A stretch of 64,000 nucleotides of DNA from contig CAWEAZ010000038.1 in NCBI GenBank assembly GCA_963807155.1, positions 36,709-100,708 of the forward strand, written 5' to 3'. Position numbers and translations under genes: made by a program. Below are positions 6,450-62,070 of the stretch, piece by piece (the first letter of the stretch is position 1; every line of letters starts with the position of its first letter). The stretch comes from an uncultured beta proteobacterium (GTDB lineage Bacteria; Pseudomonadota; Gammaproteobacteria; Burkholderiales; Burkholderiaceae_F). Below the pieces are notes generated by a model that ran no database searches, was not told where the DNA came from, and saw only the letters and a program-made list of their open reading frames with translations.

Positions 6450-7126
6450 CAGGCCGACAGTCTAGCGAACGCGGGTTCCTGAACGGGTGCGGGCGCCGAC
6501 AGATGGGCTTGCAGCCGCTCGCTGAGGTGCAAGCCGACATCTTCGCAATCAGCCTTGACGCCAAGCGTCGCGAGATCCACGACTTGTAACCCGGCGTAGC
6601 CACATGGATCGATCAGCGCATACGGCGCCAGATCCATCGCGACGTTCAGCGCGACGCCGTGATAGCTGCATCCGCCGGCCACCTTGATGCCGAGTGCCGC
6701 GATCTTGGCGACGTCATTGAACGGCGGCGACGCATTACTCGGCCATGGCGTGAATACGCCCGGAGCCCCCGCTACGCGTCGGCCGTCGACACCGTAGGCC
6801 TGAAGCGTCTGAATCACCGACTGCTCGATGCGAAAGACGAGCTCTTTGACATAGATACGTAGACGCCGCAGGTCGAGTAACGGATACGCAACGACCTGGC
6901 CGGGACCGTGGTACGTGATCTGACCTCCGCGATCGGTTGTCACGACTGGAATGTCGGAGCCGGCAAGCAGGTGCACGCGGCGGCCCGCCTGGCCCAAAGT
7001 GAAAACGGGCGGATGCTCGACCATCCACAGTTCGTCAGCAGTATCGGAACTGCGCTGCGCATTGAACTCACGCATCGCCTGCCAGGTGCGGACGTAGTCG
7101 GCGCGTCCCAAGTGCCGAATGATCAT
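6449..7126 (-). CDS. lipB: Octanoyltransferase
   Basis: [22 protein letters not shown] motif, immediately upstream of lipA. Confidence 0.95.
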
Positions 7127-44057: not shown

Positions 44058-44179
44058 GGCTTTGAGACGACTCTAGCAAACACGTCGCAGACATCCGGCG
44101 CGAAGGATGGCGTTTCGTCCGCTTACCACGGCTCCCGGGTCCATTCGAACGCTCGATGGACGGAGCCAACTTAGCCCTA

Positions 44180-44195
44180 TAACGTTCCGGTAACG
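44180..44195 (+). promoter_or_regulatory. Candidate SARP box: TAACG-N6-TAACG direct repeat with 11-bp phasing
   Basis: TAACGTTCCGGTAACG lies 45-60 bp upstream of the SARP gene start. It is 16/18 identical to TAACGGCCCGGTAACGC at 47691. Confidence 0.3.
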
Positions 44196-44239
44196 CTCGC
44201 GCGCAACGATCGCTGCATCGACGACATCGAGGGGTCGGT

Positions 44240-47200
44240 GTGGATCAGTTGCGGTGGCAAGTCGCGCGTGAGGCGGGAGTAGCGCCGCGGCTGCAGAGCC
44301 TGCTGCGCTTTGCGGGGCTGCCCTTGATCGAGACAACTATAAGAGCGGGCGCATTGGCACGGCTGCAGCTTCTGGCGGCGCCTGCGCTTGTGCGCCCCGA
44401 TGCGACCGTCGTACCGCTTGAGCGCAAGGACGCGGCGTTGCTCGCACTGCTCGCGTTCGATGGACCGACATCACGGTCTCGCGCGGCAGCGCTGCTCTGG
44501 CCCGATGCCGATGCGGACAAGGCGCGCAACAGTCTGCGGCAACGCTTGTTCCGGTTGCGCCGCGCGGCGGGCACCGAGCTTATTGAGCCTGACGAGAGTC
44601 TGCGTCTTGCAGATCGCGTCGAGCACAACCTTGGTTCGCCAGCACGGCAGCTAGCCGAGGATCCAACGGCCGCTGCAGGGGACCTGCTGGGTGCGTGTGT
44701 GTACGAGGACTGCCCGGAGCTGGAAGACTGGGTTCGCATCGCGCGCGAGCACTGGCGCGCGATGCGCCGCGATGCGCTGGCCGAGCTGGCCGCCAAGCGC
44801 GAAGCGGATGGACAGATCGCGCAGGCGCTGGTCTACGCCGAACGGTTGCTGGCCGAAGACCCTGTTTCCGAACAGGCGCATCGCCTCGCAATGCGACTGC
44901 ATTACCGGCGCGGCGATCGGGCCGCGGCGCTGGCTGCGTATGACCGTTGCCGTTCTGCACTTCAGCGCGAGCTCGCCGCTGAACCCGATGCAGAAACGGT
45001 TGCGCTTTCGCAGCTGATTCAGAGGGCTGACGAGTTGCCGGGATTGGCACGGGAAAGCGCGGCGGCCCGCCGCAATTCTTCGGCCCCCGCGCCTGATCGG
45101 ACGCGATGCCGAGTGGCGCGCGCTCGAGCGCAGCTGGGATGCCGGTCTGCCGGTGCTGATCAGCGGTGACGCAGGCGTTGGCAAGAGCCGACTGCTCGGC
45201 GATTTCGCTCATGCTCGCTCTGTGCCGATGGTCGGTGGCCGGCCCGGAGACACCCGCGTGCCTTATGCGGTGCTGGCGCGCCTGCTGCGCGCGGCTCTGC
45301 GCACCGAAGGCGCGATTCGCCTCGATGACGGGCTCGATGACTTCGTCAAATCAGAACTCGCGCGCGTGCTGCCGGAACTCGGCGCAGCGCCGGTCGGCCC
45401 GTTGGTCGAAGCGCGCTTTCGCTCGGCGGTCGTGCAGGCGCTGTCTGCGCGGCAAGCAGCGGGACTTGCAGGCTTTGCCGTCGACGATCTTCATTTCGCC
45501 GATGACGCGACGCTTGAGTTATTGCCGCAGCTCGTCATCCCCGGTCTGCGCTGGATCGGCGCGGTGCGCCCCGCGGAATGCCCGGCGCCGATCGCGGCGT
45601 GGCAACGCGCCGAAGGCGGGCAGAGACTCGCTGAAGTGTTGCTCGCTCCTCTGAGCGAGAGCGCAGTGCGCGAACTATTGGAATCACTCGCGCTGCCTGG
45701 CATCGATGCCGCCGCACTCGCCGGCGCGATTGCGCGCCATACCGGCGGCAATCCGTTCTTCGTACTCGAGACGCTGAACGCATTGGTCGAGACAGGCGGC
45801 GCTGACCACGTCGAATCGACTGCCGACGCCGACATCAGTCGGCGCGCTGATCGAGCGACGGCTGGCGCAACTGTCTGCTCCTGCGCTGAAGCTTGCTCGC
45901 GTCGCCGCGCTGGCCGGCGCTGATTTCAGCGCAGCGCTGGCCGCCCATGTATTGCAGACGCATCCGCTCGACCTGGCCGAAGCCTGGGGCGAACTCGAGA
46001 TGGCACAGGTCATTCGCGGCCAGGCGTTTGCGCACGACCTGATTTACGAGATCGCACTGCGATCAGTGCCGCAGCCGATCGCGCAACTGTTGCAGCGTGG
46101 CATCGCCGAGTATCTGGAGTCGCAAAATGCGCCGCCGGCGAGTCTGGCGCAGCACTGGGCCGACGCTGGCGAATGGAGCCGCGCGGCGCGCGCACATTTG
46201 CTGGCTGCCGCTGAAGCACGGCACACGTCACGCCGATTGTCGGAAGTCGAGCACTGCGAAGCTGCGTTTGCGTGCTTTGATCGCGCGGGCGAATCGGCGT
46301 CCGCGTTCGACGCACGCTGTGCGAGCGTCGAAAGCCTGATCCTTGTGCGCGGCGTTGAACGCGCCAACGTCGTCATTGATGCATTGCTCGCTGAAGCGCA
46401 CTCGGACGGTCAACGCGCCGCTGCGCTGACCGCGCGCGCGAACGCTGCGCTGATGGCCGTCGATCATGTCACCGGCATCGCGTCCGCGCGCGAAGCGTTC
46501 GCGCTGGCCGAGCGGCTCGAGTCGCCGTGGCCTCGCTTCGAAGCGGCACGCCTGTTGGCGGTGGGCCTTGCCCAGGCGGACCGCAGCGACGAGGCGCTGG
46601 CGGTGATCGAACCGTTTGAAACATTGGTCGAAGCCGACGGCACGCGCGAGCAGCGCGGTCGCTTCTGGGCCGACTATGCGTATGTGTTGAACTCGGCGCG
46701 CAAGCTGCGTCGGACAGCAGACGCGCTTGCCCGCGCGATCGACAACGCACGCGCGCTCGGCGACCTCGCTGAGCTGGCACAACTGACGACGAACCTGGCG
46801 ACGGTGCAGGGCAACTTGGGCGATATCGGCCAGGCGCTCGAGCACGCGCTGCGGGCGCGAGCACTGCAATCGGAGGTCGGTGACACCGACGGGCCGATGC
46901 GCGGCGTGATCGAGCACCACTGCGCGCTCTACAGCGCCGAGGCAGGGCGGTACACCGAGGCGCTCGATACGATCGAAACGGCGCTCGAGTGCTTCAGGGG
47001 CGACGGTCAGACGGTGTGGATTGCAGTGGCGAACAACAACAAGGCGGCGATGTTGATCCACCTGGCGCAATACGGGCGCGCGAAGAAGGCGCTCGACTAC
47101 GTTGCGCCGTCGGTCGGCCATGTTCGCGCGCGCGGGGCGATGCTGTCTGCGCGTATTGCGCGCCTGCTCGGCGGATCCGCGAAGCCCGATTTGCGGCTCG

Positions 47201-47680
47201 CCGCAGAAGCGCTGGGCACGGCGGGCGATCCGTACATGCGGCTGCTGGTCGACCTCGAAGAGTCCATCGAATTGGCACCGAGCGACGCGGCCGACGCTTT
47301 GCATCCGCGTGCGCTCGGCTGCGGAGAAGATCGAGTACTTCGGCGTGGCCTTGAAGGCCCGCTTGCTTTTGGTGCGCGCCCTGCTGAAAACGGGTGAGAT
47401 GGACGCTGCCGCTGCGCGCTGGACCGAGTTGCAACCGGCGCTGGCATCGATACAGCCGGCCGACATGTATCTGCCTGATGCGTGGTCGATTGGCCATGAC
47501 GTGCTCGCGGCCAACGGTGACACAAGCGGAGCCGCGGCGCTGCTTGCGCGCGCGGTCGAATGGATCGAACAGACAGCGCTGCGCCACGTGCCACCCACCT
47601 ATCGCGACAGCTTTCTCCATCGCAATCCGGTCAATCGAGGGTTGCTGACCGCTGCAAGCCGCCCTGGCAGCGCGGCTTGA
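44240..47680 (+). pseudogene. SARP/AfsR-like regulator: wHTH + BTAD + AAA ATPase + TPR, three +1 frame breaks (near 45065, 45825, 47300)
   Basis: wHTH (RKDAALLALLAF..LLWPD..ARNSLRQRLFRLRR), BTAD (LLAEDPVSEQAHRLAMRLHYRRGDRAAALAAYDRCRSALQRELAAEPDAET), Walker A GDAGVGKS, and a long helical-repeat C-terminus. About 1146 codons in total. Confidence 0.8.
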
Positions 47681-47690
47681 TAGAACTCAG

Positions 47691-47720
47691 TAACGGCCCG
47701 GTAACGCGCAACTCGTTACG
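47691..47720 (+). promoter_or_regulatory. Candidate SARP box: TAACG-N6-TAACG direct repeat plus an inverted CGTTAC copy
   Basis: TAACGGCCCGGTAACGCGCAACTCGTTACG lies 43-72 bp upstream of ATG 47763. Confidence 0.3.
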
Positions 47721-47762
47721 TTCTGCCCCGAGGCCGAATCGCGGCCGCGACGGGGAGTCACA

Positions 47763-49384
47763 ATGAAAAAGTCCAGACTGAGAAGGGCAACCGTGGCGGC
47801 GCTAATTGCCGCGCTCGCGGGGCCGGTCATTGCGGTTGACCGCCAGATCGGCATCGATCCGATGCTATCGATGCACTGGAGCACGCTGACCGGCGGCCCA
47901 ACGACGCCAGCGGCCACGATAGGCAACCACATGATGGTCGGCTTCTGGCAACGCTCGTCGGGCGCCAAGGCCGGCGTGGGCTCGATCAATACCGGTGTGG
48001 TCGAGTTTCAGTTGCCGGAAAACCCACCGCAGCGCATCCGCTCGGCCACGCTCCAGTTCAAGGCGCGCGCCAGTCAGTGCTCCGGTGCTGAGCCGGTTGT
48101 GTTCGAGGTCTTTGGTTTTCCGGGTAACGGCCGGACGGACCCGGCGGATGCCACCACGGGCGTGAGACTCGCGCAACTCACCGCCAACTGCGCCGATAAC
48201 CCGGCGTTCACGCAGCTGATCGACGCGACCAATCTGGTGCGTCAACTAAGCGTGGCCTCGGGCCTGCGCTTCGTTGGTTTCAACGTGCGCAAGATGAACC
48301 ATCGCGCCGGTCCCAGTTTCTTCGGGTTTAGCGCCGCCAAGCTGACGATCGTGGTGGCCGACCAGGACGTGGCGGCTGCTCCGAATCCGGCGAGCATCGG
48401 TGGAACAGCGGGCGGAGGGACTGCGGGCGGTGCGCCGGCCGCCGGCTCGGAGGTCGATGTGAATCGCGTGATCGGTGGGTTGCTCGGCGCCGCGGGGACG
48501 CTGATGCGTGGCGGCGGCGAGAAGCCGGCGCGCGATCAGGCGGGCAACGAGGCCGCTGCCGTGTTGAGCAATCCGCCGATGACCTCCACAGACGCGGGCG
48601 CCGCATCTTTTCCAGCCAGTTCCGGCTACGTCACCGGCGGGTGGCGAAGTCGTAGGTGCTGCTGCAGCCCCCGCCGCTGGCGTGGCCGCCGCCGCGGCAC
48701 CCGCCCGGGCAGCGGTCAACGTCGACATCGTCGGCATCAAGCTCGGCATGCCGCTGGCTGAAGTCAGGCGCGCGCTGCAGGCGCACTCGCCGGGGATGCG
48801 CATCGACGAGGCCCGCGGCATCGTCAACAATGTCGCGGCCACCGACTATCTGTCATGGGTGATCGCGCGCGGCGCCCAGCGTGGCACTGACGGCTCGGGT
48901 GACGCGATCGGAGTGCACTTCCCGCCGCCGCCGAACGCGCATCGCGCCATCTTTGTCGAGCGCTTCACCGGCTTTCCCGCAAACCAGTATCCGCTGTTCG
49001 ACACGCTGAAGCAGGCGCTGGTCGGGAAGTACGGTTCGCCCAGCTTCGCAAGCGAAGGCGTGATGCTGTGGACCTTCAATGCGGCCGGCGCGCAGATCGT
49101 CGACAACAACGTGAACGCGCGCTGTGCCAAGTTTCCGCCGACCGATCCACCGGCGCGTGGGCAGAACGTGCTCTTCAACGGCTACAAGACGGCCGGCTGT
49201 GGAACGACGGTCTATGTGCGATACGAGCGCAACCGCGGTCCGTCCGAACAGCGACCTGGTGCGCTGGATGAGCGTGTCGCTGATCGACGATTCGCAGTTC
49301 GAAGACATGCGGCAGGCCGCGGCGCGCTTTGCCACGCAGGCCACGCGCGACGCCGGATCACGCGTTGCCGCGCCCAAGCTGTGA
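47763..49384 (+). pseudogene. Secreted two-domain hypothetical protein (P1) with Gly/Ala-rich linker, two frame breaks (near 48640 and 49240)
   Basis: Signal peptide MKKSRLRRATVAALIAALAGPVIA. The N-domain runs to about 48360 and the low-complexity linker covers 48360-48720. The C-domain lies in ORFs 48682-49461 and 49124-49384. Confidence 0.55.
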
Positions 49385-49528
49385 GGAGCCTGCATGACCC
49401 GCGCAATCCCATGAGTGGCGGGTTTGAGCTCTTCAAGAAATGTGCTGGACGCGGTCGATAGCGTGCGGCTCCGAGGAATCATCAAAGGTGCGCATACGAG
49501 ATAGCGCACGGCCATAGAGGGAGAAAAC

Positions 49529-50382
49529 ATGAACCGCTTGATCTACAGCGCAATGCTCACGCTTGTCGCCACCAGCGCGTCGGCCTGGGCACAGGGCAAG
49601 AGCGATATAAGCTGATGCAGCCCTACCTCGGCGTGCTGGCACCGGACTGTTCGAACTACATGCTGCCTCAGCTCAAGAACCTTGGCGATTCGCTGGTCGT
49701 GCAGGACGGCGGCAAGGCGGTGCTGACCGGGCTCAAGGTGAAGCCCGCGCCCAAGTACTTCGGCGCTACACCTCCACCGGAATTCGAAACCGCATTTACG
49801 AGCGAGGTCGCGGGCGGTGAAGCGCTGGTGTTCGTGTACTACCGTAATGCTTCGGGTCTGTTCGCCGCGGTCGAGGGCGGACCGAAGGTGATGGCCGCGC
49901 TGCCGGCAGCATTCAAGGGCAAGCGCTCCCGGCACTGCGACCCGAACCGCAACGTCGCGCCGGGGGCAGCGGCAGCGGCCCGAGCGCAGCAGGCAAAGGC
50001 CGGATCCGAACAAGATTTCAAGGGCTACGCGCTGACTGAACTCAGCGCGGCGGGGCTTCTTTACAACGCGAAGGCAAAGGAGATTTACTACAAGGCACTC
50101 GGTCCGCTCGTGAAGGAGTCGTGGCTCGCCAAGCTCGACGGCCCGAGTTCGGAGGGTCAGGCAATGAAGGTGGCTGACGCCGATTACGTGATGCTCTACA
50201 CCTGCAAGAACCACGACTGCTACGACAACAACGTCGTCCTGCTGTGGTCAGGCGTGCAGAACGTTGTGTACGGCAAGGTTAATCAGAAGGGCAAGTCGAC
50301 CTTGATCGGCGACCCACCGCCGGCCGTCGCGGCCGAACTCGAAAAGCTGTGGAAGAAGCAGTTCCGGTCGCAACCGAAGTAG
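49529..50382 (+). pseudogene. Secreted protein with a C-terminal Ivy (inhibitor of vertebrate lysozyme) domain, frame break near 49600
   Basis: Signal peptide MNRLIYSAMLTLVATSASAWAQ, after a GAGGGAG RBS, is one frame off the body (ORF 49615-50382). The C-terminus aligns by eye to E. coli Ivy, including the loop YTCKNHDCYDNNVVLLWS versus ACKPHDCGSQRIAVMWS. Confidence 0.6.
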
Positions 50383-50411
50383 CGCCCAGTGCGCCGAAGC
50401 GCCACGCCGTG

Positions 50412-50433
50412 GCGCGCTAGCACTCACAGAGAT
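50412..50433 (+). repeat. 22-nt upstream motif GCGCGCTAGCACTCACAGAGAT (copy 1)
   Basis: 20/22 identical to 51090-51111. Upstream of family-A gene A1. Confidence 0.35.
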
Positions 50434-50444
50434 GAGGGGACACC

Positions 50445-51017
50445 ATGACGATTGACGACGTTGGCCGTTGCCGCGCATCGATGATGCGGGCCGCGATGTT
50501 GGGACTGTGCCTATGCGGGAGCTTGCCCGCGTTCGCCGCAACGCTTGGAGACATCGCCGCTGCGCTGGCGGCTCCGGCGGGTGCGCCGCAGGCGACCAAC
50601 GACTTCACTGCGTTTGCCAAGCTGGCCGGCGCCAAGTGGCAAGGCAAGGCGCCAGCCAAGGGCGGAAACAAGTACTACTGGAACGGCAAGGTGCCGATCG
50701 ACGGCGTCGGCTCGGGCCAGATCAGTCTCGTCGGCGGTCAGAAAGCGCTGGACTCGGCCACGGTCGGTTGGCCGAAGAACATCGTGCTCGCGAAGGTTCC
50801 GGAGATGCTCGCGGCGCAGTTCCCGAAGGACACGAAACTCGAACAGGTTCGCGGCGCCTGCCCGGACGAGCGGCTGAGCGGCTCGCGCATCTATCGCGCG
50901 ACGCTGGCGGGGCGCAAGCCGCTCTACCTGCACATCCAGTACGCGGCGGCGGATCGCGGGGGCGCCACTTCGACGATCGAAATGGAGCCCCAGCGCAACA
51001 AGGGGTGGATCTGTTGA
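50445..51017 (+). CDS. Secreted hypothetical protein, family A (A1)
   Basis: Signal peptide ..MLGLCLCGSLPAFAA. Paralog of 53774-54316 (shared ATLGDIAAALAAP/VTLGEFAGALAVP, RIYRATLAGRKPLYLHI/RLYRVTLPAKRPLFMRL, terminal W-x-C). The start may be 50481. Confidence 0.6.
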   Translation: MTIDDVGRCRASMMRAAMLGLCLCGSLPAFAATLGDIAAALAAPAGAPQATNDFTAFAKLAGAKWQGKAPAKGGNKYYWNGKVPIDGVGSGQISLVGGQKALDSATVGWPKNIVLAKVPEMLAAQFPKDTKLEQVRGACPDERLSGSRIYRATLAGRKPLYLHIQYAAADRGGATSTIEMEPQRNKGWIC

Positions 51018-51089
51018 TGGACAACGTGCGCGTTGTTCGCCTTGGTCGACGAGCCGACGCACGGTCGAGTCATCGAGTGCTACGCCCTC

Positions 51090-51111
51090 GCGCGCTCGTA
51101 CTCACAGAGAT
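51090..51111 (+). repeat. 22-nt upstream motif GCGCGCTCGTACTCACAGAGAT (copy 2)
   Basis: 20/22 identical to 50412-50433, and 62 bp upstream of ATG 51173. Confidence 0.35.
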
Positions 51112-51172
51112 AATCGAAGACCGGAATGGCGGTCGCAGCTGAAGTAGTGACCTTGTGATAAGGGAAACAATC

Positions 51173-52207
51173 ATGATGAGTCGATTCATGTCGTGCGTAC
51201 TCGCATTGATGGTGCCCTGCGCGATGGCGCAGACACCTGAAGAGGACCGCCGGCGCGAGTACAACCGCCAGCAGGAACAGCAGCGCGAGGAACAGCAGCG
51301 CCGGGCGCAGGAGGAGATGCAACGGCAGCAAAAGGTCAGCAGAAGACGCGAGCAAGAGGCAGCAGCAGTTGCACGACGAAACGACGAAGAACATAGAGCG
51401 ATTGGCGAAAGGACGCGTCCAAGAGGGGGGCGGCAACGAGCAACCAGGTCGGTAATGACATGAGGGACGCGCGCCCAAAGCTGCCCGCCGAACGCAACGT
51501 GCTGCTGGGCAGCTGGCGCGTTGAAAGTGGCAGCCAGGGGGCCGGCGTTACCGGGCTCGGTCAGGGCAAGGGGACCGATCGCAATGCCATGGCCCGCGAG
51601 CTGTCGACGGCGTTGTCGAATCCCTGCGTCCTGATGTTCGGGAACGGGATTACTTTTGCGCCTTCAACCTACTCGATCCAGGCGCTCGACGGCAGCGTGT
51701 TTCGAGGGTCCGTTGACTACCGCAGTACCCAAAAGCAAGTCATTTCGGCCATAACCCAAGAAACCTGGAAGACATTGTCCTTCGAAATCGAAGGCCCGAA
51801 TCGCATAGTGTGGGGGCGCTTCGGCTGCGCACTAGTGCGGGTCGGTGCGCCTGCCAACGCCGCGGTGAATGCGCCGACTGCTCCGGGCAACGCGCGCACG
51901 GCGGCCGCCAGCTCATCGGCGACGTCGGCAGCACGCCCTGCCGCAAGTGGCGTCTGCTGCGCCGTCCGTGGGCGCGGTGTTCGACGGTGCCGCCTTCCAA
52001 TGCGCCGATGGTAGCTTGCTGCACGTCAGCCTGTGCCAGGGCGCGTCCGCCGACTCTACGTGCAAGCTCACCGAGTTGCACAAGCCCCCTCACGGCCTGC
52101 AGATGGGCACTTCAACACGCCGCGCGGACATTGCGGCGCGCGTCAAGGGCTGCGAGGCCGGTGGCATCCGCTATGGCGCCGACCACAAGGCGATCTTCGT
52201 GCGCTAA
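51173..52207 (+). pseudogene. Secreted hypothetical protein, family B (B1), two frame breaks
   Basis: Signal peptide MMSRFMSCVLALMVPCAMAQ, then a Q/E/R-rich charged segment, then LPAERNVLLGSWRVES.. (ORF 51460-52014), then a Cys-rich C-terminus (ORF 51869-52207). Confidence 0.5.
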
Positions 52208-52340
52208 GGGGCGGGCGGCGCGCTCGGCCGCCGTCTCCTCGAAGATCTGCCGCGCGAAATTTGCTGCTGGAAGGCGTACTACGCGAGAAAGTAGGGACAG
52301 GACGCATCGCAGGCGAACTGATGGCCAGGAGGTCCGACGA

Positions 52341-52460
52341 ATGAACAATCAATGGGATGCCGGGACTGCCGCAGTGCTGTGGGCCTTGTTGCTCGCGACC
52401 GCGCCGGCCGTGGCGCAATACGGAGGGATGTCACAGGGCCAGTACATGCAGCCGAAGTAG
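52341..52460 (+). CDS. Small secreted peptide (39 aa)
   Basis: AGGAGG lies 9 nt before ATG 52341. The product is MNNQWDAGTAAVLWALLLATAPAVA-QYGGMSQGQYMQPK. The mature part resembles the mature N-terminus of B2 (QYSPYDPRSNIYNNEY). Confidence 0.4.
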   Translation: MNNQWDAGTAAVLWALLLATAPAVAQYGGMSQGQYMQPK

Positions 52461-52503
52461 CGCAGCACCTTACTCGTGCCGTTTCCATCAGGAGTCCAAA
52501 ATA

Positions 52504-53731
52504 ATGGTGAGCAAGACACAAGCAGGTACGTTGGCCGCAGTTTCGATCGTGCTTGCCGCGTCTAGCGCCGCGCTCGCCCAATATTCACCGTACGATCCCC
52601 GAAGCAACATATACAACAACGAATATCTGCGCCGCCAGGACGAGATAAGGAGGAACGAAGAAGCCGCCAAAACGCAAGAGCAGTACGACGACGAAAGGCG
52701 TTCTGCCAATGCTCCTCCTGCATCTTCTTCTTACGATGCCCGCGGCGCTGCCGAGTTGCAGGCCTTGCGCGGGAAGCTTACTCGGCATGCCGCCATTGCC
52801 TGACGAGCGTAATACGCTGCTCGGGCGCTGGCGCGTCGAAAGCGCCGGCAAGCCCAAGAGGAAGGACGAACTGGGGCAAGCTGATGGGCATGCTGTCTAA
52901 CCCCGGCGGCGCCGCCTGCCAGTTCACGTTCGGCGATGGCATCACCGAATTCAAGTCGAAGACCTGGGCCAGCATCGACGCGCACGGCGATGACTCGCTC
53001 GGCCCGATCGCCTATCGCGCCGACGGCAAGCGGTTGTTCGCGCTGCCAGCCAAGGGGATTGAAATCATGGGGTTCGATGTCGTAAATCCGAATCGTATTG
53101 AGGTTTTTAACCTCGCGGGCTGCGCCTTAACCCGCGTTACAAGCACCACGACAACGACACAAAGCGGGCTGCCGAACCGCGCGCCATCAGCATCGGCCGC
53201 CGGTGCGCCGCCACCGGCGCCCGGCCCGGCGAAGTCCTCGACGGCCTCGAAAGTGGCCGCTGTTGCGCCTGTCGCCGGCAGCTTCAACGTTGTCGCGCCC
53301 GTCACCCGAAGTCTGTCGCCAGACCTTGCTCGACAAACTCGGCGTTGTCGGCGTCAACCAGGTGCGGGCGATGTCGGACGTGCGCTTCAAGGAACCCGCG
53401 ATCGAAGGCAAGGTGCCGAACACGAACAACCTGCGCATCGACCTGCGCGGCAGCGCCTGCGACGACCCGCGCCTCAAGGCGACGCTGTACGACTTCGACG
53501 CCAATGAAATGCTGCAGTCGATCACATTTGTCTGGGACGCGCCCGCCCGGGCCGGCGCCGGCGCCGATCTTCCAGGAGCGTGTGCAGACGCTGTCCCGGG
53601 TCAATCCCGGCGGCCTGCCCCCGCCGCAATCACCGGGACGCCTGCAAGCGGACACAATAATGGGCCGCCTGATTCTGCAGGACATGCCGGAGCGGAACCT
53701 GCTGCTGGAGGCGTACAAGGCGAAGAAGTAG
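52504..53731 (+). pseudogene. Secreted hypothetical protein, family B (B2), four +1 frame breaks
   Basis: AGGAG RBS and signal peptide ..VLAASSAALAQ, then a charged segment, then LPDERNTLLGRWRVES.., NPGGAACQFTFGDGITEF.. and GCALTRV, then a Thr-rich linker and a C-domain. Five frames are used (starts 52504, 52709, 52884, 53203, 53345). Confidence 0.5.
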
Positions 53732-53773
53732 TGGCGTTGCCGCGACAAGTAGTTTTCTAGGTGAAAGATCAGC

Positions 53774-54316
53774 ATGCGCGCATGGATTGTTGGCCTGACT
53801 TTCTCCGCCCTGCAGGCGTCGGCGAGTGCGGTAACGCTCGGTGAGTTCGCCGGCGCGCTTGCGGTGCCGGTTGCGGCAAAGCATTCGGCCAACAACTGGA
53901 ACGCGCTAAAGGCAGTAAAAGGTGTGACATGGCGCGACACCACGGTGAAGGAAGCGCCTAGCGCGTTTGCTCAAGCAGCAGACGTAGCGCTCAATGGTCA
54001 CGGACGGGCGACCGTGCTGGTCGTCGGGGCTCGTCAGATGATGTTCGACATCGAGGTGTCGATGCGCAGCTTGCTCGAGAAGAAAGGTCTCGCGCAGACG
54101 CTTAAGGCGCAGTTCTCTGCCGCCACGCTGATCGAGCAGATCGGTGGCGACTGTCGAACGAAGACGGGATCCGGTAGCGCACGGTTGTATCGCGTGACGT
54201 TGCCGGCCAAACGGCCGTTGTTCATGCGGCTCGAACTGCCCGGCGCAGGCAATGCGGCGCCCGCCGGGACGCTGTTCACACTATCGGTGGAAAACAAACC
54301 ACAGTGGGCGTGCTGA
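53774..54316 (+). CDS. Secreted hypothetical protein, family A (A2)
   Basis: Signal peptide MRAWIVGLTFSALQASASA. Paralog of 50445-51017. Ends in ..KPQWAC. Confidence 0.6.
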   Translation: MRAWIVGLTFSALQASASAVTLGEFAGALAVPVAAKHSANNWNALKAVKGVTWRDTTVKEAPSAFAQAADVALNGHGRATVLVVGARQMMFDIEVSMRSLLEKKGLAQTLKAQFSAATLIEQIGGDCRTKTGSGSARLYRVTLPAKRPLFMRLELPGAGNAAPAGTLFTLSVENKPQWAC

Positions 54317-55483: not shown

Positions 55484-56372
55484 TCAAGCAAAGCGAATCA
55501 CATCGGCCGCCGCATCTTCTTGAGTGGCGCACGGCGGTTCATCGAACGCGATATCACCATCGATGTCCGCACGGCCGCTCGCACGCAGCGACGCAAAGTC
55601 GAACAGATCTGCATCCATCAGGTGTGACGGTGTAACTCTCGCCAGCGCGTTAAATATGTTTTCAACGCGTCCCGGGTAGCGTTTCTGCCATTCGATCAAC
55701 ATGCGCTTGATTTCCTGCCGCTTCAGATTGACCTGGGCGCCGCACAGGTTGCATGGGATGATCGGAAATTCTCTGACGTCGGCGTAACGTGCGAGGTCGG
55801 CTTCCTCAACGTACGCGAGCGGTCGGATCACGATGTGCTTGCCGTCATCCGACATCAGCTTCGGCGGCATCGCCTTCAACGTGCCGCCGTAGAACATAGT
55901 TCAGGAAAAATGTGCCGAGGATGTCGTCGCGATGATGCCCGAGCGCGATCTTGGTCGCACCCAGTTCGTCGGCGACGCGATACAAAATACCGCGCCGTAG
56001 ACGTGAGCACAACGAGCACATCGTCTTGCCTTCAGGAATGATGCGCTTGACGATCGAGTACGTGTCCTGCGCTTCGATGTGAAACGGAACGCCTCTGGCT
56101 CTCAAGTACTCGGGCAGAACTTCTTCAGGAAATCCAGGTTGCTTCTGATCGAGGTTGACAGCCACGAGGTCAAAGTCGATCGGCGCGCGTTCGCGCAACA
56201 GCAGCAGCACGTCCAGCAGGCTGTAGCTGTCCTTGCCGCCCGACAGGCACACCATCACCTTGTCACCGGCCTCGATCATGTTGAACTGCGTGATCGCCTG
56301 GCCGGTCAGTCGCAGCAGGCGCTTCTCCAATTTGTTGTTCTCGAACGCGAGCTTTCTGAGAGGGGCGTTCAT
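55484..56372 (-). pseudogene. ttcA: tRNA 2-thiocytidine biosynthesis protein TtcA, one frame break near 55885
   Basis: PP-loop CLSGGKDS, plus [10 protein letters not shown] and CNLCG. The junction reads GTFFLN-(extra T)[14 protein letters not shown], between ORFs 55845-56372 and 55484-55897. Confidence 0.85.
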
Positions 56373-61103: not shown

Positions 61104-62070
61104 TCAGCGGCCCGCGCGCGCACGGTAAAGGCCAAAACGGCTGCGCGCGTGCGCGCGCGAAAGATAAGTGGGCGCTTCCGCCTCCATCGGCGTCATTCCG
61201 ATTCCGAGTTCGGGCGCCGGTCGGAACGGTTGTTCGGTGGCGATGTTATCGACCTTCATCGAATCCAGGTTATCGCGCGACAGCAGCGGCTCGCCTGGCA
61301 TGAGCTCCATCATCATCGCCTGCACGCGTGCCAGCGCATCGGGCAACCCGAACACGGGTCGCGGATGGCCGCTCGCTGCAGCGGCAAAGGCGACCATGTC
61401 GCGCAGTCGGTAAATCTGCGGACCGGCGAGCTCGTAGATATGCTCGAACGTATCGCGATTGTCGAGCGCGTTGACAAACGCATCGGCAACGTCGCCCACC
61501 CACACCGGTTGAAAGCGCGCGTTGGCGCAGCCGATCGGCAGCACCGGAAAAAATTTTGCGAGCGTCGCAAACATGTTCAGGAAATTGTCCTCGGGCCCAA
61601 ATACGACCGATGGCCGAAAAATCGTCCAGTCCAAGTGGGAAGCCTGCACTACCGCATCGCCGTCGCCTTTGCTGCGTTGATACATCGAAGGGCCGTTCGC
61701 ATCGGATCCGAGCGCGCTCATGTGTAATAAGCGGTCGACGCTGTGTTGACTGCACATCGCAACGATGCGCTGCGGCAACTCGACATGCGCCTGCGCAAAC
61801 TCAGGCCCGTAGGGCGAACCTTGCGATCCATGCAGGACACCGATCAGGTTGATCACGGCGTCCTTGTCCCGGATCAATCGGTCCAGACGCCGCATCGTCG
61901 TGCACATCGCACTCGACGACATCAATCGTTGGCAACATGATCAGGTGGCGCGCCCTCGCGCGCCGCCGCGTCGGAACCGTTACCCGCAGGCCACGCGCGG
62001 TCAGCCGCGCAACAATATGGCGCCCGATAAACCCGGCACCGCCGATGACGAGAATGTTGGAATGTTGCAT
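61104..62070 (-). pseudogene. NAD(P)H-binding NDUFA9/NmrA-like epimerase-dehydratase family protein, one frame break near 61900-61925
   Basis: The N-terminus MQHSNILVIGGAGFIGRHIV (ORF 61801-62148) joins the body in ORF 61104-61925 (..LIGVLHG.., YQRSKG). Confidence 0.75.

Follow-up and report, generated by a model that had tools for sequence, protein, structure and literature searches.

A predicted large SARP regulator and a putative regulon of exported proteins in uncultured Burkholderiaceae

Proteins of the SARP family (Streptomyces antibiotic regulatory proteins) are regarded as regulators through which actinomycetes control antibiotic synthesis, and Ivy is a periplasmic inhibitor of C-type lysozyme and lytic transglycosylases. 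Herein, we describe a locus that appears to bring a member of the first family together with a relative of the second, in a 64,000-nucleotide stretch of DNA from an uncultured betaproteobacterium (contig CAWEAZ010000038.1, positions 36,709 to 100,708; hereafter, the window). A gene for a predicted large SARP regulator (REG) is followed there, on the same strand, by a cassette of seven open reading frames (ORFs) for putatively exported proteins (P1, an Ivy fusion, A1, B1, a 39-aa ORF, B2, and A2). An initial annotation, made from the letters of the window, had read this island as a regulator with a dedicated exported regulon. Our results revealed REG upstream of the cassette's B gene in 19 of 24 informative loci from other genomes and SARP-type boxes in front of both REG and the cassette, and because the boxes recur at both positions and the linkage holds across these loci, we consider the dedicated-regulon reading well supported.

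Gene models in the window were built by aligning intact orthologues from related contigs with tblastn, followed by frameshift-aware protein-to-DNA alignment; a frame plot of GC content at third codon positions (GC3) did not tell the frames apart at the GC content of the region. Related loci or contigs that were fetched for comparison carry L-numbers (L001, L021, and so on), and homologous proteins carry P-numbers (P0135, P0297, and so on). The features of the island are as follows.

44179-44195, + strand: upstream box ATAACGTTCCGGTAACG, two hexamer repeats 11 bp apart, 1 mismatch
44240-47680, + strand: REG, predicted large SARP regulator with a GTG start, 1146 aa when frame-corrected
47690-47706, + strand: cassette box GTAACGGCCCGGTAACG, exact GTAACG-N5-GTAACG, 10 nt past the REG stop
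47763-49384, + strand: P1, predicted exported protein of ~540 aa, with an N-domain, a Gly/Ala-rich linker, and a C-domain
49529-50382, + strand: Ivy fusion of ~283 aa, with a signal peptide, an N-domain, and a C-terminal Ivy-like domain
50445-51017, + strand: A1, predicted exported A-family protein of 190 aa, frame intact
51173-52207, + strand: B1 (B' subtype), with an alternative four-Cys C-domain, ending KAIFVR*
52211-52291, + strand: relic of a standard B C-terminal tail, non-coding or out of frame (..LGRRLLEDLPRE/NLLLEGV..)
52341-52460, + strand: 39-aa ORF, signal-peptide-like (...APAVAQYGG...)
52504-53731, + strand: B2, standard B protein of ~408 aa when corrected
53774-54316, + strand: A2, predicted exported, divergent A paralogue of 180 aa, frame intact; final gene of the cassette

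The regulator, its boxes, and its linkage to the cassette

From its start at 44240, the frame-corrected REG product reaches 1146 aa, equal in length to the intact orthologue in L021, which bears out the regulator of ~1146 codons and winged helix-turn-helix (wHTH)-BTAD-AAA-TPR order proposed initially. Pfam matches cover BTAD (4e-17 / 3e-17), AAA_16 (between 1e-16 and 3.6e-11), and TPR_12, and both Walker A (GDAGVGKS) and Walker B (AVDDLH) are legible in the corrected sequence. Thus, REG carries the arrangement of the SARP family, with a wHTH and then BTAD at the N-terminus and a NOD/STAND ATPase and TPR toward the C-terminus. Although a single-sequence phmmer search gave no match, a profile built from the first ~330 residues at nine loci and searched against PDB chains aligned its residues 57-272 with EmbR 32-270 (2fez, 1.3e-4) and its residues 57-260 with AfsR 66-286 (8hvr, 1.7e-4), in both cases covering the wHTH and BTAD. 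The kinship to EmbR and AfsR is therefore remote, being visible to the profile only. By its predicted architecture (wHTH-BTAD-NOD-TPR), REG is a large SARP, or AfsR-like STAND regulator, and it adds to a known regulator class a new member of unusual phylogenetic placement.

SARP promoters are described as having direct repeats 11 (or 22) bp apart, with the 3' repeat ~8 bp away from the -10 and with no -35 element (PMC10936776). When the short stretch that separates the REG stop from the following gene was aligned over the loci, it showed a box of this kind (consensus C.GTAACGgccCgGTAACGCc....tcgCTAcgTT), in which two GTAACG hexamers with an 11-bp period are followed, 9-10 nt on, by a TAnnnT-type hexamer. 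In the window, the cassette box is followed by the -10-like hexamer TACGTT (47717-47722), the ribosome-binding site GGGGAG (47752-47757), and the P1 ATG (47763). The box is exact at the equivalent position in 23 fetched loci, regardless of whether the first gene encodes a CsgG-like protein, P1, a lipoprotein, or an Ivy fusion, and it is kept while the spacer around it diverges. In many loci (L005 7976, L008 5577, L024 6963, L036 4319, and others), the first GTAACG includes the TAA stop of REG; therefore, the putative operator there overlaps the end of the coding sequence. A second box precedes REG itself, with the same 11-bp period and the -10-like hexamer AACGAT at 44206-44211. Boxes at this position lie ~45-60 nt before the REG start, at ~45 nt in the window, and their consensus (TATAACGTyCCGGTAACGC.C.CGC..AACGATCG) was found 5' of the regulator in 16 other loci. 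The box at 44179 is thus a predicted autoregulatory site.

Scanning both strands of 835 kb of related loci with up to one mismatch gave 53 matches to the box, all on the coding strand, where ~4 would be expected by chance according to our own arithmetic. All but one directly precede either REG or a gene of the cassette, and these include boxes before P1 in L010, before a lone B in L015, after Ivy in L022, and before Ivy in L037. The single outlier (GTAACGGATACGCAACG, window 6877-6893, + strand, one mismatch) falls within a minus-strand ORF far from the island and is probably a chance match, given that 3.1 matches are expected in the window at up to two mismatches. Inside the cassette of the window (47.7-54.3 kb), we found no further box and no sigma-70 consensus or convincing terminator, the generic promoter and terminator scan being uninformative. 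Since the gaps between the genes are also short, P1 to A2 would most simply be read as one transcript.

The distribution of the cassette was assessed by scanning the B-family alignment against 185,579 species-representative genomes. This yielded 41 loci, all in metagenome-assembled genomes (MAGs) from Burkholderiaceae, Caldimonas, Aquincola, and a few Gammaproteobacteria, with no isolate among them; many of the carriers are long-read MAGs from Danish soil and sediment. The 24 informative loci are those with at least 8 kb upstream of B, and wherever REG is linked, it lies on the same strand and the Ivy domain is retained (19/19). The flanking genes differ between loci (in the window, a TctC-family receptor and a PEP-mutase/ICL-family gene, both on the minus strand and divergent from the island, lie upstream, and a Cys/Met-metabolism PLP enzyme, metC-like, lies downstream), and the stretch from REG to B constitutes the conserved unit. 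Specifically, the recurring order is REG, a head module, Ivy with or without its N-domain, A, B, and sometimes A2 or an extra B or B'. The head module consists either of a "CsgG-like" protein and a ~150-aa protein or of P1 with or without a multi-transmembrane (TM) protein and a small lipoprotein. By gene content, the cassette is a modular one, in which the head module and the A and B copy number vary; what is retained is the regulator, the box, and the Ivy, A, and B genes.

These observations can be joined into a mechanism. As an activator, REG would contact DNA and RNA polymerase through its OmpR-type wHTH and BTAD, with the NOD serving as an ATPase switch and the TPR region as a sensor. Two REG protomers would occupy GTAACG-N5-GTAACG at the -35 position, 9-10 nt upstream of a TAnnnT-type -10. 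The box before REG would provide positive autoregulation, and the box after its stop would drive a transcription unit of ~6.6 kb (47.76-54.32 kb) that would encode only Sec-exported, Cys-pair-containing proteins, namely P1, the Ivy-like fusion, A1, B', B, and A2. We infer DNA binding and activation by REG, the co-transcription of the cassette, and the localization and biochemical role of its products from sequence features.

Several points weigh against this scheme. Five of the informative loci lack the regulator; of these, L045 and L048 are second loci of MAGs that also have B genes in a main locus (L014, L019), REG being present only in L019. Among 13 regulator-less loci scanned, none has a box in the 1.5 kb before the B match; these include four of the five, and the fifth, L037, has its box in front of the Ivy gene. 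Further, by our own count the -10-like hexamer follows the 3' repeat at 9-10 nt, a spacing near but not equal to the 8 bp of the SARP rule, and the box was derived from conservation among homologous loci, where shared ancestry adds to the signal. On balance, we hold it highly probable that the regulatory architecture consists of a SARP of the large type, a box for its autoregulation, and a promoter of the cassette in which repeats replace the -35 element. That the whole forms a self-contained regulon, with a SARP activator, its own boxes, and an exported cassette, is in our judgment a likely reading, held with less assurance than the architecture.

The exported proteins and the candidate role of the cassette

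All seven ORFs begin with a hydrophobic core and an AXA-type site, as judged by a simple rule rather than by SignalP. The seven same-strand signal-peptide ORFs of the initial annotation are thus present with fitting N-termini, but frameshifts interrupt four of them (P1, the Ivy fusion, B1, and B2). Its statement that no enzyme, transporter, or mobile-element gene is interspersed agrees with our finding of no Pfam-recognizable gene between the cassette ORFs on either strand, the minus-strand ORFs of the region having no Pfam match, and Ivy (PF08816) is, as it had stated, the sole family match among the seven. P1, A, and B have no match in Pfam, NCBIfam, or PADLOC, and profile searches of each against PDB chains were negative. 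Their homologues (86 for P1, 111 close ones for A, and 375 for B) are all hypothetical or unnamed, and A has 101 matching clusters among 1.84 billion representatives. The secreted genes therefore neither fall into annotated families (Pfam, NCBIfam, PADLOC, PDB) nor, in 19 of the 24 informative loci, stand apart from a SARP/AAA/TPR gene in other genomes, the two outcomes that the initial annotation had named as arguing against a dedicated regulon.

The Ivy fusion joins an N-domain of ~130 aa, 90-98% identical in amino acids across most loci and without a match in Pfam, NCBIfam, or PADLOC, to a domain that scores above threshold for Pfam PF08816 (2.2e-7, 31.5 bits, cut-off 21) and far below it for the NCBIfam equivalog NF007443 (7e-8, 32 bits, cut-off 180). 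Ivy, an inhibitor of lysozyme and lytic transglycosylases, acts through a canonical inhibitory loop, CKPHDC (PMC3660660). The loop of the window protein reads CKNHDC, and the cassette Ivy-like proteins depart from the canonical form throughout: CKN[H/R/Q]DC occurs in 23/23 cassette homologues, with Asn always in place of Pro; the His is retained in 16 and changed to R in 6 and to Q in 1. By these signatures, the window domain would be a relative of the Ivy fold rather than an Ivy orthologue.

A1 and A2 are paralogues (28% identity). A1 is the orthologue of the lone A gene found in most loci, and A2 has orthologues of 79-95% identity in the same terminal position in L001, L002, L017, L018, L021, and L033. 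The two conserved Cys residues and the W-x-C end that had been noted for the A proteins held up across the family, with W188 and C190 (the terminal W-x-C) invariant and C139 nearly so; A1 ends in W-I-C and A2 in W-A-C. The AlphaFold model of A1 (pLDDT 82.5, pTM 0.77) is an alpha/beta domain with a predicted C139-C190 pair. A Foldseek search with the A model gave best E values of 0.09 in the PDB and 0.03 in BFVD, none below 0.001. Weak LolA, VioE, and RseB-like matches from the fold searches of A and B were not significant and were not used. The A domain also occurs at the C-terminus of longer remote homologues, including a TIR-TM-A protein (P0297), an FGE-sulfatase-A protein (P0285), and a 790-aa membrane protein (P0262). 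Because it forms the probably extracytoplasmic C-terminal part of these proteins, this suggests that the A domain may be an extracytoplasmic binding or sensing module that is reused in conflict or signaling proteins. B proteins consist of a signal peptide, a charged helix, a PPLP motif, an N-domain of two subtypes with a Cys pair, an Ala/Pro linker, and a very conserved C-domain, also with a Cys pair; the B model (pLDDT 69) gave no fold match, the best Foldseek E value in the PDB being 0.09.

What such a set of proteins does can be hypothesized from these parts. Tentatively, and short of a probable assignment, we favor induced protection of the cell wall or envelope, in which a signal would induce a set of periplasmic or surface binders and inhibitors that guard the wall or envelope from lytic enzymes. 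Candidate targets would be lysozymes or muramidase effectors that predators and competitors deploy, or else lytic transglycosylases of the cell itself. This role, at which the initial annotation had hinted from the Ivy domain, is favored because Ivy is the sole recognizable component and is nearly always kept, because the products are predicted to be exported and disulphide-stabilized, and because paralogue turnover and domain swapping are typical of inhibitor, binder, and immunity families. The inhibition of lysozyme and lytic transglycosylases by known Ivy proteins and the suggested binding or sensing use of the A domain also speak for it. Against it stand the loop without the canonical Pro and the replacement of the key His by Arg or Gln in 7/23 homologues; this altered loop, together with the score far under the NCBIfam equivalog cut-off, makes lysozyme inhibition by the Ivy fusion doubtful. 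Further, A, B, and P1 are unlike the inhibitors PliC/MliC, PliG, and PliI, which were absent among the top Foldseek PDB matches of A and B, the two families covered by the fold search. Finally, the membrane proteins and the "CsgG-like" gene in the cassettes of relatives fit a role in assembly or secretion equally well.

The last point leads to one alternative, namely, that the cassette serves to build or secrete a structure outside the cell (matrix, fiber, adhesin, or sheath), with P1 or the CsgG-like protein exporting or anchoring it and A and B as its subunits; the Ivy-like protein would then merely guard the wall during export, and REG would be the counterpart of CsgD. An alternative head gene for a protein of ~305 aa occurs in about half of the related loci (L003 8009-8932, L005 8049-8960, and 8 others), and L016 has both head types. 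A precomputed PF03783 (CsgG) label is attached to the ~305-aa protein, which is 73-88% identical to that of L003 across eight aligned loci and precedes an exported protein of ~150 aa, and a first gene so labeled, with a small exported protein after it, speaks for such a structure. However, the label was not reproduced, as hmmscan gave no match at E up to 1 and the family profile found no PDB CsgG chains. The window itself is without a CsgG-like gene by tblastn. Insertions in the cassettes of relatives (L021 6042-6398; L001 2152-3174 and 3316-3687) encode a membrane protein with DUF4282, a multi-TM protein of 340 aa, and a small lipoprotein (LVAAC|DSGPS), which the window lacks; among the extra genes of relatives, Pfam, NCBIfam, and PADLOC gave DUF4282 alone.

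In metagenomic proteins P0405, P0407, and P0408, the P1 N-domain is joined to DUF642, a Pfam domain of unknown function, in place of the P1 C-domain; DUF642 we take to be a galactose-binding-like, carbohydrate-binding fold. This fusion, the membrane proteins of relatives, and the long charged helix and Ala/Pro-rich linkers of B would suit an extracellular structure, but A and B are predicted to be globular and Cys-stabilized, without fiber- or amyloid-type repeats, and the locus has no glycosyltransferase, usher, sortase, or other assembly enzyme. We therefore consider a structural or secretory role unlikely, including the guarding part that it would give to the Ivy-like protein and the CsgD-like part that it would give to REG.

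Less likely still, and in our estimate quite improbable, is that immunity proteins against the exported toxins of competitors (delivered, for example, by a type VI secretion system, T6SS, or by contact) make up the cassette, an island expanded through duplication and recombination and placed under a danger-sensing STAND regulator. TIR and FGE-sulfatase domain types are common in conflict systems, and the fusion of A-domain relatives to both, the NLR-like NOD-TPR architecture of REG, and small signal-peptide proteins in an array whose copy number varies, whose subtypes swap, and which holds gene relics but no interspersed enzymes would all be in keeping with it. Yet neither the window nor the clean loci have a toxin, T6SS, Rhs, or contact-dependent inhibition (CDI) gene nearby, PADLOC gave no matches, and the Ivy-A-B core keeps its order under ordinary purifying selection (dN/dS, the ratio of nonsynonymous to synonymous substitution rates, 0.1-0.25), unlike a rapidly evolving assortment of genes. 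Further, the dedicated activator sets the cassette apart from orphan-immunity islands, of which we know of none that has one. Envelope protection thus remains the role that we prefer.

Paralogue turnover and the origin of the frameshifts

The initial annotation had seen meaning in the order of the A and B paralogues, which are mirrored around the 39-aa ORF. Comparison with close relatives spoke against this. The order is A1-B-A2 in L001, L002 (there A1-B2-A2), and L021, and A-B in L003 and L005. L001, whose A1 is 97% identical to that of the window, and the likewise close L021 each have a single B, with a B1-like N-domain and a B2-like C-domain. B1 and B2 were described as paralogues, which holds for their common N-terminal layout but not for the C-domain. 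B1 has a signal peptide, a charged Q/E/R-rich helix, a type-I N-domain, the Ala/Pro linker, and a different, four-Cys C-domain that ends in KAIFVR*, while B2 has a type-II N-domain with a Cys pair and the highly conserved C-domain with its own Cys pair. This alternative (B') C-domain, ~70 aa with four Cys after the shared linker and without a match in Pfam, NCBIfam, or PADLOC, shows 64-76% conservation in L022, L043, L036, and L019, the last with several copies, and L044 keeps part of it (residues 45-90, 65%). A B' gene is usually followed by a standard B, and B' ORFs are intact in L022 and L043. In L019 (6700-11800), a tandem array of at least 3-4 B' copies precedes the standard B, the extreme of paralogue expansion.

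Between B1 and B2, the segment at 52211-52291 weakly resembles the final ~27 aa of nine B proteins in tblastn (identity 37-44%, E 0.16-1.8), and its nucleotides match the L001 B gene's end at 88%; as far as these matches go, this B-tail relic marks a past rearrangement. The neighboring 39-aa ORF has no homologous ORF in other loci and no match in Pfam, NCBIfam, or PADLOC; it resembles the N-terminus of the B protein P0135, but weakly (27 aa, 55% identity, E 0.15). It is probably a remnant of the 5' end of a B gene rather than a functional peptide gene, and we rejected it as a true peptide gene for want of a homologue and for its relic setting. Given that copy number and order vary, with a relic tail and a B' subtype present, the symmetric order would therefore be a by-product of duplication and recombination, and, not being conserved between close relatives, mirror symmetry was rejected as a functional feature.

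The island contains 13 single-base frameshifts (REG 3, P1 2, Ivy fusion 1, B1 3, B2 4), of which 12 are +1 insertions. Specifically, +1 shifts split REG over four frames (near 45050, 45807, and 47293) and interrupt P1 (near 48627 and 49252), B1 (near 51335, 51435, and 51949), and B2 (near 52777, 52880, 53271, and 53539), and a -1 shift near 49614 places the signal peptide of the Ivy fusion (MNRLIYSAMLTLVATSASAWA) in a different frame. No nonsense codons accompany these 13 shifts. Outside the island, one frameshift each, relative to intact orthologues, was found in the essential tilS (55487-56372, - strand), in a NAD-dependent epimerase gene (61107-62070, - strand), and in the metC-like gene (~55431, + strand). 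The overall pattern indicates that indel errors from assembly span the whole window rather than the island alone. The relatives closest to the window, L001 and L002, come from "contig_N" records in the Microflora Danica MAG set, and their genes are fragmented at positions unlike those of the window; these MAGs are assemblies from Nanopore reads (PMC12313526). Short-read assemblies hold intact genes, with REG at 1133-1142 aa in L003-L007 and, in L021, a REG of 1146 aa, a P1 of 536 aa, and a metC-like product of 368 aa.

The cassette genes are under purifying selection and without known homologues, and their boxes and linkage are conserved. The dN/dS is 0.08-0.11 for the corrected REG and 0.09-0.10 for P1, comparable to 0.086 for the metC-like gene, and that of A2 is 0.09 against L021, with a range of 0.08-0.25 overall; a value of 0.83 for the B1 N-domain against L001 was discarded, as L001 is an error-prone long-read contig. 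Because tilS is also broken, dN/dS is ~0.1, and short-read relatives are intact, we judge the frameshifts of the window to be probably assembly errors and not decay. Shifts are denser in the island (13 in 10.1 kb) than in the following 7.8 kb (3; one-sided binomial ~0.04, own arithmetic), which would fit a poorer consensus in a strain-variable region. In the B gene of the otherwise clean L021 (~9050; short-read SPAdes MAG JBDTQZ010000002), an in-frame stop (...MLQSIT*VWERPPGP...) replaces a conserved Tyr/Phe codon, through either genuine nonsense mutation or recoding. That the island is a decaying pseudogene cluster, with real frameshifts and a cassette non-functional in its host, would draw on this density, on the B-tail relic and probable gene fragment between B1 and B2, and on the L021 stop, but we reject it as very improbable indeed, given purifying dN/dS on corrected genes, frameshifts in tilS, the epimerase, and the metC-like gene as well, the dominance of single-base insertions free of nonsense codons, the different breakpoints of the Nanopore-only L001 and L002, and the intact genes of short-read assemblies.

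Comparison with known systems

Of the described regulators, AfsR of Streptomyces coelicolor offers the closest parallel. Both it and REG have the order wHTH-BTAD-NOD ATPase-TPR in ~1000-1150 aa, and both the afs box and the window box consist of two direct repeats with an 11-bp period that replace the -35 element near the -10 (PMC10936776). The two differ in that their similarity is remote and seen by profile only (E ~1e-4), that the host of REG is a betaproteobacterium, whereas SARPs have been described mainly from actinomycetes, and that the repeat at the REG locus is GTAACG, set 9-10 nt from the -10 rather than 8. Further, the predicted targets of REG are exported proteins, in contrast to the afsS and antibiotic gene clusters of AfsR, a second box predicts autoregulation at the REG locus, and no AfsK-type kinase was seen there. 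SARP architecture and operator geometry in Proteobacteria are thus predicted to control an operon for exported proteins, not antibiotic synthesis, and a target set without a known counterpart, confined to uncultured lineages. It is possible, if on the unlikely side, that this is an unrecognized inducible envelope system of uncultured soil and sediment Burkholderiaceae, the first SARP regulon with a defined operator outside Actinobacteria, with at least four orphan exported families. The operator, being short, exact, and conserved, makes the regulon directly testable and offers a handle for switching on the cassette of its uncultured carriers.

The curli genes csgDEFG are also alike in that an activator gene is accompanied by exported accessory proteins, and in some relatives the likeness extends to a first gene with a CsgG label (not reproducible) followed by a small exported protein. 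Unlike curli, the window has no CsgG-like gene, its regulator belongs to another class, and there are no curlin-repeat subunits. PliC/MliC, PliG, and PliI are small exported, beta-rich, and often disulphide-bonded proteins whose protection against peptidoglycan hydrolases is analogous to the role proposed for the cassette, although A and B share neither sequence nor fold similarity with them.

With Ivy itself (E. coli YkfE/Ivyc, P. aeruginosa Ivyp1), the cassette protein shares a PF08816 match above the gathering score, predicted export, and a six-residue loop that is closed by a disulphide and in which Lys and Asp are conserved. It differs in its loop (CKN[H/R/Q]DC versus CKPHDC), in its score far below the equivalog cut-off, in its fusion, in the window, to the conserved N-domain of ~130 aa, and in its position in a predicted SARP-controlled operon. 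The cassette thus adds unannotated protein families, among them one confidently modeled domain without a solved-structure match and one Ivy variant with a changed loop. If A, B, and the Ivy-like fusion were new inhibitors or sensors of cell-wall-lytic enzymes, they would represent a new mechanism of envelope defense, and an envelope-protective cassette would widen the known repertoire of soil bacterial defenses against peptidoglycan hydrolases.

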